Assembly: GCA_951406725.2 (NCBI GenBank)
Contig: OX597816.1
Span: 119,846,001 to 119,910,000 of the forward strand
DNA: 64,000 nucleotides
From: Octopus vulgaris
Lineage: Eukaryota
Direction of reading: 5' to 3'
Translations under genes and position numbers: made by a program
Shown: piece by piece, positions 30,721 through 41,730 of the stretch
How the letters are laid out: each line of letters opens with the position of its first letter
Numbering within the stretch: position 1 is the first letter of the stretch
The notes under the pieces: generated by a model
What the model was told of the DNA's origin: nothing
The model's input: only the letters and a program-made list of their open reading frames with translations
The model's database searches: none

Positions 30721-32279
30721 CATACCTACCTACCTACATACATACATACATACCTACCTTACTATATCATATGTTATATAAAACAGGGTTTGAGTTCATC
30801 TGCTAATTTTTGCGATGATGATAAAGTCCCAGTTACAGAAAGTCTTATGGTTTTCTATTTCCAGTTTGTATAACTGCAAGCTATCTTAAAAGTGTAAGCT
30901 TTCACTAGGATTATCGCTTAACACCCATACGCACGCACACAGGAAAAGGAAAGACATATATACATACAAACACACACACACACATTTCCTACATGAAGGA
31001 ACACAATACACACACTAATATATTTTAATTTTTGTTTCTCAACCTTTCAACCTCAACATAAAAGCACATAGAGGCTCTTAAACGTCCATACATACACGCA
31101 CGCGCGCATACACGCACACATATTCACACACTCACTTTCTTTCTCTCAATTTATCTGTCTGTTTTCTTTCGCTATATCCCTTTCTTAATTTATTTATTTC
31201 TCTTCTACTTTTATATCATTCTTTCTCACAATTTTTTTTAATACCTTTCTCCTACTTCACCCCATTATTTTGTCTTTCTGCTTCTCTCTCTCTCTCTCTT
31301 TCTTTTTTCTTTTTCCCCTCTCTCTTTCTGTTTTCCTTTTTAGCTCTGTTCCCTCTGTTCTTTACCTCTCCCTCTCTCCTTTTATCTCCCACGCTCATAA
31401 GAACAGACAAATTTTTTTTTTAAATTATAGACGACATGCAATTGTAACGTACACGCATGCACGCACCAGGCAAACAAAAATAAATACATAGATAGTCAAC
31501 CATGTACACATGCAAATACACTCACATACACAGAGTAGAAAAAAATATGCACACTTTCGTAATGAAATAAGACCATACATATACACACGCAAAGACAAAA
31601 AGCCTGCACTCAGTCACAATACACAAAAAAAATTCTACTCCCCCCCTCTCTCTCTTCCTCTCACTTTCTCGGCGCCTTTCTATTTTCTCTTACTCTCTAT
31701 TATTATCTTCTTCACTCCCCCTCATTATCTCCGATATTCATAGATCGTTTGCAGCTGGTGTGTTCCAGAAGAGTGGAGCAACAAACCTCTTTTGAAAAGG
31801 GGAGTCCGTACTTCTCCAATTCACTGAGCTTATTCTCTGAGAAACTCTGTGATAATGGTTTCTTACGAGCGAAACTGCTTGGAGGTCGCTCTGCCTGCCT
31901 GCTAGAAACAGCAGCCAAATCTTCTTCAAACCACACCCTATGGTCTTTTAAGGAACGTGTGAACACGTTGGATAAAGCTGTTCTGCTATATACTATTTCT
32001 GGTGAGAAAAAAAAGAAAAAGACAGTTATGGCGGGAAAGTCTTTGGTTGTAGGTCTGCTCTGCAACAACAGCACAACAGCTTTTCAAATCGGAACAACGC
32101 TGTATATTTGCAATCGATTTAAATCAACCTCAATGTATTACTGTTATTAATAGACTCCAATGAGAAAGTCTTTGTGCAGTCACTCGATCTGCTAGAAATA
32201 GACGCTAAATCTTTTCCATATTACTATTTATTTTCTCAAAAAAAAAGTATACACGTATATATATATATATATATATATA

Positions 32280-32818
32280 CTGGTGGCAAAAGAATTCTAC
32301 AAAAATTTTTTTGCCACCCTATATTGATTAATTATGAATTTTCTGGTTAGTTCCGTAATGGAATCGGAGGCTTATATTTATTTGCTGCCGATAAATTTGG
32401 CGCGAGTGCGACGATTTGAAAATTTTAGGTCAGATATTGCCGAGGTAGCAAGAGGAATGCCTCGTGAAAAATATCTGTTCCAACTTGGCTATTTCTTACT
32501 GATGAGTCTAAGGGCCTATGGTGGATTGGCTTGATTTAATTTAATCAGGTTAGTTTACCATTAAACGGTAGATGAAACGGTGCATCGTCTAAGAAATTAC
32601 AGGGTAAAAGTTTTTCAATTTTCTCCTGGTTTACGGAATTAATGTTATTTTGCGGTTAAAGCTTTTGGCTGTTATTTCTAGTGGGTGAATGGCCTATTAT
32701 GGCCGTTCCTTGATTGTGATGTTGAACGTAAAAATAGTTTATGACTATTTAATTTTTTCCTACTAGGCCGCTGGTGGCAAAAGAATTCTACAAAAATTTT
32801 TTTGCCACCCTATATTGA

Positions 32819-32826
<8 letters not shown>
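32280..32826 (+). mobile_element. Terminally redundant, hammerhead-containing non-coding retroelement (retrozyme- or Penelope pLTR-like), 491-bp unit + 56-bp repeat
   Basis: Identical 56-bp direct repeats at 32280-32335 and 32771-32826, flanked by (TA)n on both sides; internal hammerhead ribozyme; no recognisable coding sequence. Confidence 0.75.
32491..32597 (+). ncRNA. Type I hammerhead ribozyme
   Basis: Stem I ATTTCTTA / TAAGAAAT; core CTGATGA (32499-32505); stem II GTCTA / TAGAT; GAAA (32574-32577); stem III CGGTGCATCG; GTC cleavage triplet (cut after 32589). Confidence 0.85.
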
Positions 32827-32851
<25 letters not shown>

Positions 32852-32857
<6 letters not shown>

Positions 32858-33748
32858 GAAGTTTCGCATGTCGTAGCGCAGATTTCCGTCGATTTCCGTA
32901 AAAAACTTTTATTTTTTTACATAAGTAATGAGAGCGAAAGAGACTAAGAGGAAGCGATTTTATGACGAGAAGGTTTCACTTTGAAATCGGCCTGTGTGTG
33001 TTTGATGGGGTGTGGGAGACAGACAGTATGTTGTGTAAGTGAAGTGCTTCTGTTAGTGTGTGCGAAGAGACAGAGAGAGTAATGTGTGAAAGAGAGAGAT
33101 AACTGATTTTTTACTCGGTGTATGTGTATATGTATGTATGCATGTATGTGTATATGTATGTATGCATGTATCTATGTATGTGTGTGTGTGTAAGTATGTG
33201 TGTGTGTATGTATGTATGTATGGCCGATTCATCGTAATTTTTTACTCGGTGTATGTGTATATGTATGTCTGCATGTATGTGTGTGTGTGTATGTATCTAT
33301 GTATGTGTATGTATGTATGTGTGTATGTATGTATGGTCGATTCAGTGTAATTTTTTACTCGGTGTATGTGTATATGTATGTGTGTGTGTGTGTATGTATC
33401 TGTGTGTGTGTGTGTGTGTGTAAGTATGTGTGTGTGTATGTATGTATGTATGTGTGTGTGTGTATCTATGTATGTGTGTGTGTGTATGTATGTATGTATG
33501 TACTCGGTGTATGTGTATATGTATGTCTGTCTCTTCGCACACACTAACAGAAGCACTTCACTTACACAACATACTGTCTGTCTCCCACACCCCATCAAAC
33601 ACACACAGGCCGACTTCAAAGTGAAACCTTCTCGTCATAAAATCGCTTCCTCTTAGTCTCTTTCGCTCTCATTACTTATGTAAAAAAATAAAAGTTTTTT
33701 ACGGAAATCGACGGAAATCTGTGCTACTACAACCGAAACTATGCCATA
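32852..33748. mobile_element. Foldback / long-TIR MITE with ~223-bp inverted arms around a minisatellite
   Basis: 32852-33074 is the near-perfect reverse complement of 33526-33748; ends TATGGC..GCCATA; spacer of ~115-150-bp units starting TTTTTACTCGGTGTATG. Confidence 0.85.
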
Positions 33749-39064: not shown

Positions 39065-41730
39065 TAGTCGGTGGTGCCTATACAAAATTCGAAGGCTGTG
39101 TGAACCTTATCTCAAGCCTCTGCCTGCTTCATCTCTTCTTAGATATCGCTGTCTCTGAAGTTTCCTGTTGATGTCAAGATCTTGCTGATTTTAATATCTA
39201 TGGGGTGGATTTTCTTTACAGATCCTAAATGTTGGTATTAGCACTGGTACTGCAAATACATTGTAAGACGAGAGCTCCAACTGCTACATTTTTCTAGGTC
39301 TAGTGTAGTTTCCTCTTAAGGCGAAGGTCCTTTACCTTCGCTCCTCTTTATTCACAGCACCTTCGTATTATATATTTTCATCAATACCAAGGCATTTGTA
39401 GCATTCATTGTGTGGAATACTAGATATAAAAAGACCATTGATACATACACGGGTTGGACAAAATAATGGAAACACCTAGCATCATAATTTTGAAACCGTC
39501 AAAAGCTTGTTTATTTTTATACTTTTTTTTTATTTATTATTAGTGTTGCTTACTATGTTTTGCTAAAATTGCTGTTTCTTTTCAGATATCATCAGAAAAG
39601 AGTAATTAAAATTTATTAAAATGACAGATCAATCGAACTTTCAAAGAGGTCAAATTGTTGATGCTCGTATGGCAGGCGCTAGCGTAACGAAAACAACCGA
39701 AATATTTGGTATATCAAGAAGTACTGTCTCGAAAGTAATGACAGCCTTTGAGAAAGAGGGAAAAACTTCGTCGAAACAAAACTCCGGAAAAAAATCCAAA
39801 ACTTTCAGATAGGCACCGTCGGACTCTTACGCGAATTGTTAGAAAGGATCACAAAAGTACAGCTCCCTAAATTACTGCAGAGCTTAATGACCACCTCGAG
39901 AACCCAGTTTCCACAAAAACTGTTCGCCGGGAGCTGCACAAAGCCGGATTTCACGCGAGGGCTGCAATCATGAAACCACCACTTTCACGGGAGGGCTACT
40001 TTCAAAAACGTTGCAAAGCGTTTAGAGTGGAGTAAAAACCCACAGAATTGGTCCCTAGAGCAGTGGAAGAATGTTATTTTCTTGGCCGAGTCATCCTTTA
40101 TCTTATTTCCGACCACCGGCTGAGTATACCTGTGGAGACAGCCAAAAGAAGCATTTGACCGAGACTGCCTTCTTCCAACTGTTAAACATGGAGGAGGATC
40201 TGCGATGATCTGGTGAGGTTATATCTTGGAAATCCGCCGGCCCAATGGTTTCCCATCATGCCAGAATTCATAGTCAAGACTATTTAAGCATTTTATCTGA
40301 TCAAATTCATCCTACGGTTGTGGGACTGTTTCCAGAGGGAAACGCAATCTTTCAGGATGAAAATGCACCAATTCAACAGCTAAAGTTGTTACTGAATGGC
40401 ACGAGGAACATTCTAGTGAAGTTGAACATCTTATCTGGCCACCACAGTCCCCAGATGTCAATATTATTGAATATTTATGGTGCATTTTAGAAATACAAGT
40501 AAGGAGTCGATATCTTCCACCATCATCACTACAAGAACTGGAAGCTGTTTTAGCTGAAGAATGGACAAAAATTATTTTGGAAACAACTCAAACTTTGTAC
40601 GAGTCCATACCTTGTAGAATTCAAGATGTAATTACTGTCAAAGGCGGTCCTACCCCATTTTGAAATAAATTTGTTTGAAATTTTAAGGTGTTTCCATTAT
40701 TTTGTCCAACCCCTGTAGGTTTGGGGTTTGAAGAGACTGATTTTTCCATATGAAGGCTTCTTTTGGTCAAATTCCGCTCCTATGTTAGCTAAAGATGTTA
40801 ACACCAACTGTTTTCGGCTTTTTAAACATTTTAGCATAGATCATCCACAAATAAAATGAGTTACACTGATATCTCTAACAGTTGTAGAGTCCAGCATGTA
40901 ACAACTGTATTTTTGTAAAAAGAAATGGTAATGAATTTAATGCCCAAATAAATAAACTTACAAGGAGAGTATTCCCTTTGAAATATTTCTAACATCGGAA
41001 GATTGCCTTGTGGGTTGTTGTCTAGTAGTTGTGAGTGTCTCAGGGGCAGCGACTAAGGTAGTAGGTACTTTTGCAAAGTACAGAGTCATCAGTAACCATG
41101 AGTGGGTCCATAAAGTCGAATGCTTTCCTATAATCAAAGCATATTGTCATACGGCTTCTGTGATGTTTTCTTACTTCGCAACACAGCCTTGCTCAGAAAC
41201 TGTCCGGCACATCCCCATACTCCATTCTTTCTACTTGCTAGCACATCAGTCATTATGTTGTTGGATTCACAATGAGTCTGGAGTAACTGGTTGAAGCAGC
41301 TTGTTTAGTTGTACATAACGTTTAGGAAAGCAATGTGTCTAAAGTTTTCTGCCAACTCAGTAATTTCATTCTTGGCTACAAGATTCGTGCATGCCAATTT
41401 GGTATGTCCATCTGACTTCACACAGTTCCTTTGAATATACAAATTAATGGCTTTCTGTAGAAGGTTGTCAACTTCTTTTACCAGTGTCCAACTATTAGAT
41501 CTCTTTATAAGATGTAGCTTGTCAACGGCTATGGTGAAGGTTTCAGGGTCGATTGTGCATGTTTTACTGTCGATGTTGGCGCAGTATCTTTTCCTACTTG
41601 TATTTCGCTGCGATGCATTCTGGTTAAAATCTCTTTTCGTTCTATAACTTAGACCAGAGTAAGTCAAATCTTTTTCAGTAGGAGTATCTTAACGGTATTA
41701 TCTTCCTTCCTCATCTTCTTGTGCAATGCC
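39065..41730 (-). pseudogene. Decayed R4/Dong-like non-LTR retrotransposon RT, interrupted by a Tc1
   Basis: Broken frames give NFRHIAFLNVMY, HCESNNIMTD..KNGVWGCAGQ and ILFVDDL (~40840-40860), then beyond the Tc1 CYKCLGIDENI, FAVPVLIPTF, IDIKISKILT and AGRGL. Confidence 0.8.
39448..40715 (+). mobile_element. Tc1-family (DD34E-type) transposon, full length, transposase disrupted (39621-40663)
   Basis: TA|CACGGGTTGGACAAAATAATGGAAACACCT ... AGGTGTTTCCATTATTTTGTCCAACCCCTG|TA; HTH start MTDQSNFQRGQIV, PTVKHGGGS, FQDENAP, WPPQSPDVNIIE, GGPTPF*. Confidence 0.95.

Follow-up and report, generated by a model that had tools for sequence, protein, structure and literature searches.

A young hammerhead repeat family of Octopus vulgaris with paired, unlike 3′ ends in TA microsatellites and a probable origin by Penelope-like copying of an RNA circle

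Non-LTR retrozymes of metazoans, as described by Cervera and de la Pena (2020, PMC7229834) and by Li, Clavereau and Pollet (2026, bioRxiv 10.64898/2026.07.22.740005), are non-coding, AT-rich tandem units that each carry one type I hammerhead ribozyme with a short stem III and a palindromic loop, have no LTR, PBS or PPT, and lie dispersed as monomers to multimers in genomes that also hold Penelope-like elements. The family reported here resembles them in all of these respects. Rolling round a circular template was proposed for such elements by Cervera and de la Pena (PMC7229834), and eight of nine Xenopus retrozyme dimers were found uncleaved in vitro (bioRxiv 10.64898/2026.07.22.740005).

The other close comparison is with insertions of EN+ Penelope-like elements (Neptune, Poseidon and Naiad; Craig et al. 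2021; Arkhipova et al. 2013, PMC3846280), which the family resembles in 5′ truncation, partial tandems and an inverted 5′-truncated arm, and also in a tail that is usually at one end, two internal reverse transcriptase (RT) start sites and AT-rich or (TA)n targets (PMC3846280, PMC11167929). Frangieh et al. (2024, PMC11167929) showed in vitro that one Penelope-like protein, a predicted dimer, cuts both DNA strands and extends each, and that its RT begins synthesis at two RNA-internal positions, which mark the limits of the tail. As the cited literature stands, the mobilisation of animal retrozymes, the use of circles as template and the cause of the tandem, inverted and tailed ends of Penelope-like elements are open.

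At the level of sequence, the family has the features by which a metazoan non-LTR retrozyme is defined, a class that is already published. Its unit measures 491 nt, against 150–450 bp units and circles of ~170–400 nt in one account (PMC7229834), and lies inside the 51–972 bp of the other (bioRxiv 10.64898/2026.07.22.740005); its stem II bears a 19-bp extension; and its fixed paired 3′ ends, tail, 5′ inversions and (TA)n targeting are not described in the cited portions of those two reports. Circular RNA has been demonstrated for metazoan retrozymes and is predicted for this family. Compared with EN+ Penelope-like elements as they are described, it has no ORF, the whole element is the repeat, and the tail is 97–106 nt rather than 30–40. 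In the literature we searched, neither this family nor retrozymes with paired fixed ends are described, although supplements or repeat libraries may list the family; the main text of a 2026 octopus repeat annotation (PMC13282606) contains neither ‘ribozyme’ nor ‘retrozyme’. The copy analysed here is a 5′-truncated, single-armed member of a hammerhead family, and we consider it probable that it was made when a borrowed Penelope-like RT/endonuclease copied a predicted 491-nt RNA circle into (TA)n.

This copy lies in a 64-kb window (the whole stretch of DNA analysed), where a preliminary description had proposed a non-coding 491-nt unit with an identical 56-bp terminal repeat, set in a (TA)n tract. 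Both proposals hold: the 547-base insert is bounded by a direct repeat (32280–32335 and 32771–32826, 100% identical, spacing 491) with TA tracts on both sides, and its longest stop-free frame in six frames is 68 amino acids. The layout is as follows.

32280–32826, plus strand: whole insertion, a single-armed copy of 1.11 units; its 5′ end is at a truncation hot spot and its 3′ end is fixed site E1.
32280–32770, plus strand: one 491-nt repeat unit, phased on the 5′ end of the window copy; the spacing of 491 is the tandem period in sister arrays.
32280–32335, plus strand: first copy of the 56-bp redundancy, a direct repeat.
32771–32826, plus strand: second copy of the redundancy, the final part of the 106-nt tail from E2 to E1.
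32256–32279, no strand: left part of the (TA)n target, directly 5′ of the insert.
32827–32854, no strand: right part of the (TA)n target; the whole tract is 32824–32854, and in a dinucleotide run a target duplication is unreadable.
32710–32720, plus strand: fixed 3′ end site E2, TTGATTGTGAT, read through in the window copy and serving as an end in sister copies.
32815–32826, plus strand: fixed 3′ end site E1, TTGATTAATTAT, joined to (TA)n.

In the unit numbering used below, q1 is 32280, q311 is 32590, q441 is 32720 and q547 is 32826. GC content of the unit is below 50%, an LTR layout is absent, and the end repeat is a consequence of tandem phase. A plant LTR retrozyme, with a type III hammerhead in true LTRs and a 4-bp target duplication, was rejected, the motif here being type I, in mid-unit and outside the end repeat. 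With its single hammerhead, the window copy cannot itself release a monomer or circle by double self-cleavage; it is an ordinary, probably inert monomer.

Directly past the right TA tract (window 32852–33748) lies a MITE-like element with 223-bp inverted repeats, 97% complementary, around a core of (TGTA)n and a 113-bp tandem; it is deep in public contigs. Public contigs of runs presumed to be RNA also cover the hammerhead unit, and the MITE-like repeat is equally deep in run X3, so that the coverage is not taken as a sign of expression.

The preliminary description had proposed a type I hammerhead with an 8-bp stem I, and we find one on the plus strand with a complete core. Stem I pairs ATTTCTTA (32491–32498) with TAAGAAAT (32590–32597); the core pieces are CTGATGA (32499–32505), GAAA (32574–32577) and GUC (32587–32589), with the cut predicted at 32589/32590. 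Stem II has a 4-bp base, GTCT/AGAT, that closes a 19-bp hairpin (32518–32561), and stem III consists of four pairs, one of them G–U, around a palindromic UGCA loop. The RNA features are listed below, with helix numbers as in the consensus structure described afterwards.

32491–32597, plus strand: type I hammerhead motif, with its core kept in 18 of 18 aligned units of groups A–C bar single stem III changes.
32518–32561, plus strand: G–U-rich 19-bp hairpin extending stem II (helix 11), with 10 one-sided changes and 1 two-sided change and 99% of cells paired.
32282–32318, and again 32773–32809, plus strand: hairpin GGTGGC..GCCACC (helix 3), just 5′ of E1, its 5′ base being the truncation hot spot; 2 pairs show two-sided and 3 pairs one-sided changes, with 100% of cells paired.
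32652–32771, plus strand: predicted multi-branch domain with E2, closed by helices GCGGT/GCCGC and CTAGTGGG/CCTACTAG (helices 1, 2 and 15).

A hammerhead pattern scan of the 64-kb window gave two matches, one of them the insert motif. The other (window 40546–40690, at 40554) is a weak hammerhead-like match with a 1-bp stem II and is probably due to chance. An Rfam search did not detect the insert hammerhead, either at the gathering score or at E ≤ 10, a miss that likely reflects the long stem II.

Folding favoured the plus strand. The linear minimum was −146.9 kcal/mol (z = −5.75) for the plus strand and −94 kcal/mol (z = −3.07) for the minus strand; as a circle, the plus strand reached −142.9 kcal/mol with 64% of bases paired (z = −5.4, 40 shuffles) and the minus strand z = −3.3. 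For the hammerhead motif alone, the active fold (−27.8 kcal/mol) lies 6.4 kcal/mol above an alternative at −34.2 kcal/mol. Four plus-strand hairpins had been claimed, with mixed outcome: GGTGGC..GCCACC and GAATGGCC/GGCCGTTC are both in the fold and kept across subfamilies, and the long-range helix TTAGTTCCGTAA/TTACGGAATTAA occurs in the fold of the window copy but not in the consensus structure. The helix TTGCTGCC/GGTAGCAA was rejected, being missing from both and having an unconserved 3′ arm.

Across 18 aligned units of groups A–C, the consensus structure has 98.4% of cells paired, against 34–50% in slid controls, with two-sided changes in 13 of its 102 pairs and many switches between Watson–Crick and G–U pairs. 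This covariation gives good support to selection on the unit as plus-strand RNA, though the support is not independent, because the structure was derived from the same 18 related sequences and 13 two-sided pairs were reached in 24 of 500 shuffles. We infer that the multi-branch domain may be the region bound by the RT.

A search of the 2.8-Gb genome with the insert gave 184 matches in the 40 scored of 774 candidates, and full-length copies were 98–99% identical. Exact matches to one 27-mer at the cut site number 369, of which 360 follow the native C and 9 another base, so that there are at least 369 near-identical units, this count being a lower bound; exact intact core-junction 28-mers number 360. 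Copies form head-to-tail arrays of 0.1–18 units, nearly all within (TA)n. The multi-copy family with tandem arrays in (TA)n that had been foreseen is thus real, and the identity among copies supports the recent activity claimed for it; the identical 56-bp repeats, which had been read as a sign of youth, instead show a single template, and 56 bp say little about age. We conclude that this is a young, protein-free hammerhead repeat family, inserted hundreds of times into TA microsatellites.

Sister groups extend the family. Group B is 72% identical to the window family (group A), group C is ~89% identical to B (40 of 1830 candidates scored), and group D, at 70–80% identity, has 223 exact motif matches, of which 30 loci were read; groups B, C and D (70–80% identity) show compensatory changes. 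One group D locus (L262, 1000–2300) has its C3 core after ACCGATGA instead of ACTGATGA and carries short stutter duplications at its inversion junction. The longest array, 18 units in L088 (592–9568), has a non-TA 5′ flank and a higher-order variant pattern pointing to secondary, DNA-level expansion after insertion.

The preliminary description had expected freely permuted copies. Only the 5′ ends vary: the 3′ ends of the family fall at two sites 106 nt apart, E1 (q547, 32826) and E2 (q441, 32720). Ends were read at 104 loci (the 40 scored in the genome search, 7 further, 27 among the first 100 pattern matches listed on contigs C1–C4, and 25 + 5 reached through 5′ end patterns), counting E1 over 47–60 and E2 over 434–451 in unit numbering; 7 of the 104 ran off the locus edge and were left out of the count, as were separate side fragments in L137 and L159. 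Single-armed loci numbered 34, with 23 ending at E1 and 11 at E2. Two-armed, head-to-head loci numbered 63, and 56 of them paired E1 with E2, 7 had one odd end and none had like ends; L014, among the seven, has E1 and E2 with an internal deletion on a separate reading. The same arrangement was seen in groups B/C, where 15 of 28 distinct loci were two-armed, all with unlike ends (three share a junction and may be duplicates), and in group D the 3′ ends are at the two equivalent places.

A hairpin stands 5′ of each of E1 and E2, and both sites have the motif TTGATT (group A) or CTAAATTG (groups B/C) in common; the predicted fold of the end region, a multi-branch domain plus hairpin, is much alike in groups A, B and C, and the tail between the fixed ends is 97–106 nt. 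Taken together, 5′ truncation, an inverted 5′ arm, a tail at one end and an AT-rich target are the insertion pattern of EN+ Penelope-like elements, and, judged by pattern, the strictly unlike paired ends are the Penelope ‘tail’ signature. In vitro the two strands were not seen to differ in the start sites used (PMC11167929), whereas the ends of this family are strictly unlike.

At the 5′ side, the pattern q491–q3 gave 36 matches, and 20 of the 29 distinct loci read had true 5′ ends. The form seen in the window (q1–3 to E1) recurs in six loci, L143, L147, L148, L155, L156 and L168; the 56-bp redundancy is therefore the sum of the fixed 3′ end at 32826 and a favoured 5′ stop at ~32280, the base of the terminal hairpin. 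It had earlier been taken for the trace of reverse transcription just over once round a circle. Copying round a monomer is supported by the sister arrays, but the window copy’s redundancy lends it no such support. We favour an RT stop over a transcription start at 32279/32280, because paired arms differ in turn number and because other helix bases stop copying too.

All nine non-C matches at the cut site, in seven loci, were true 5′ ends lying exactly at q311 (32590), four of them single-armed; a GTC/TAAG control at q230 gave none of two at a similar number of intact copies (214 vs 196). In 120 ends unselected by position, 5 ends in 4 loci fell at q310–311 against 0.49 expected. Hammerhead cutting in vivo is suggested by these ends. 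As proof of cleavage, however, they are weakened by a second control at q325, 14 nt downstream of the cut site, where 5 of 6 matches were true 5′ ends, and by a scan over all unit positions, in which no window of 5′ ends was significant, the cut site included; in the unselected set, q130–132 was reached in five loci against four for the cut site.

Across the family, 5′ ends cluster at q491–3, q94–97, q130–132, q315–332 and q472–477, for the most part close to where a predicted helix begins on its 5′ side. In some two-armed loci the junction has a common hairpin or palindrome, which suggests that the two cDNAs anneal there.

Each insertion appears to descend from one template. With ends, gaps and two homopolymer tracts masked, we compared 353 units from 73 loci. 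At seven common variant sites, the units of a locus disagreed in just 3 of 420 locus-site cases; in 200 shuffles the number of mixed cases averaged 232 and never fell below 206. Locus-private variants were present in all covering units in 18 cases (13 across both arms), in a single unit in 112 and in some units in 10. A new variant fixed over a whole array requires a one-unit bottleneck followed by repeated copying, and such haplotype uniformity is what rolling round a circular monomer predicts. Separately, CpG sites at q76, q110 and q374–375 (window 32355, 32389 and 32653–32654) show recurrent single-unit changes at unrelated loci, as methylation-driven decay after insertion would give.

The same element and a Penelope-type enzyme could instead have copied linear RNA of several units, transcribed from an array and either partly cleaved by hammerheads or begun near 32279/32280, with homogeneous arrays arising from homogeneous sources; such a multimer may explain any single insertion. 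The one mosaic variant of L003 lies in register in its two arms, which is what a linear multimer or a fold-back would leave, although it is a CpG transition and may have arisen after insertion, and the mosaic variants of L087, L093 and L201 are out of register. In L143, L158 and L192 both arms extend to one 5′ point close to 32280 after the same number of turns, which would be expected if their template RNA began there; elsewhere, arms with a common 5′ point often differ in turns (1 and 3 in L004; likewise in L144, L148, L151 and L156). Copies that end at the cut site after 1–3 full units need uncut sites downstream, and uncut RNA is described as the main in vitro substrate of the Anolis element (PMC11167929). 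Against a linear template stand the many haplotypes, each fixed over whole arrays and 18 of them locus-private, which need a one-unit bottleneck at some generation. We regard a linear template as unlikely, but as an account to be kept in view.

Where the protein would come from was approached by searching for a coding partner. A six-frame search for abutting RT/endonuclease sequence found none contiguous with the unit among the sampled loci (159 family, 30 B/C and 30 D). The nearest same-strand RT/endonuclease fragment, in L246, is separated from the unit by a TA tract; inspected fragments near units all lie beyond the TA tract, and 5′ of a unit there is another unit, an inverted arm or target. 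No coding partner was found in the non-TA 5′ flanks of family loci, or when the genome was searched for GIY-YIG sequences (150 of 6136 candidates scored), in 20 longer stretches or by comparison of their termini with the unit.

The genome does contain a young autonomous Neptune-type element, with a 781-aa RT and GIY-YIG frame and many open copies; its clade name rests on a CxxxxCxxC linker as described by Craig et al. (2021). In this element (L061 1430–6672, L064 1768–5471 and L062–L077), an upstream 479-aa frame overlaps in the −1 frame. It has a 456-bp pseudo-LTR and a 40-bp tail; its copies join (TA)n at two sites separated by 40 bp, and the one inverted copy checked (L066) pairs unlike ends. 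Its hammerhead is of the minimal U3–A8 type, whereas that of the window family has a C3–G8 core and a real stem III. Neither its terminal repeat nor the 3′ regions of the other coding elements compared showed similarity to the unit. Non-autonomous Chlamys elements (MRC1, Chlamydomonas) are described as resembling their autonomous partners at the 3′ end (Craig et al. 2021), a kind of partner not found here, and they belong to a clade without hammerheads, unlike the window family.

The unit might also be the pseudo-LTR of an undiscovered autonomous Penelope-like element, its copies being truncated solo or stacked pseudo-LTRs. Pseudo-LTRs do bear type I hammerheads (PMC4209133), show the same pattern of tail and inversion (Craig et al. 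2021) and are of similar size in the Neptune-type element (456 bp); vertebrate retrozymes are reported to be related to them (bioRxiv 10.64898/2026.07.22.740005), and the genome was searched as a sample rather than a full census. Set against this are the absence of contiguous coding sequence at all the loci searched, the dissimilarity of the unit to the 3′ regions of the coding elements compared, and four groups diverged to 70–80% identity that all have the ORF-free layout, which together make a pseudo-LTR origin improbable. That single insertions grew later as DNA, through unequal exchange or extrachromosomal DNA circles, with the hammerhead a passenger, is very hard to credit: the L088 array indicates that secondary expansion occurs and local amplification has been proposed by Li et al. 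(bioRxiv 10.64898/2026.07.22.740005), but the arrays are short and dispersed, with two fixed 3′ ends on (TA)n, ragged 5′ ends, multi-unit inverted arms that have private variants in common, and a hammerhead core and plus-strand helices kept across groups.

Copying of a circular monomer by a borrowed Penelope-like enzyme, the origin we consider probable, would run as follows. A multi-unit array elsewhere would be transcribed from the plus strand; the hammerheads of successive units would cut out monomers, perhaps dimerising via the palindromic loop of stem III; and the monomers would be closed by a host ligase, by analogy with coral, mussel and axolotl retrozymes. A Penelope-like protein, presumably, would nick (TA)n and start cDNA at E1 and E2, 106 nt apart. 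Where both strands were primed, one would start at E1 and the other at E2, perhaps because two enzyme molecules sit as a dimer on one RNA, and the product would be a pair of head-to-head arms that differ in their outer ends. Each enzyme would then round the same monomer, putatively a circle, for 0.1 to about 6 turns with variable stops, favoured ones being helix bases and the cut site; for the window copy this would mean a start at E1, one full turn and a further 56 nt, with the stop at the foot of the terminal hairpin. More tentatively, and with confidence slightly short of an even chance, we propose that a Penelope-type dimer docks on one ribozyme-made circle at the duplicated signal (hairpin then TTGATT, or its B/C counterpart), with each subunit using its own site to prime one strand of the cut (TA)n and both then rolling round that circle.

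The family offers countable evidence on these questions, in paired ends that are strictly unlike and in a single haplotype for each insertion; its 491-nt unit, with two candidate start sites mapped, is a substrate suited to the published in vitro Penelope assay. If a dimer does work on a circle in this way, the Penelope tail, the head-to-head inversion and the tandem arrays would be explained together, and these ORF-free arrays would be a genomic record of rolling-circle reverse transcription of a circular RNA in the animal germ line.
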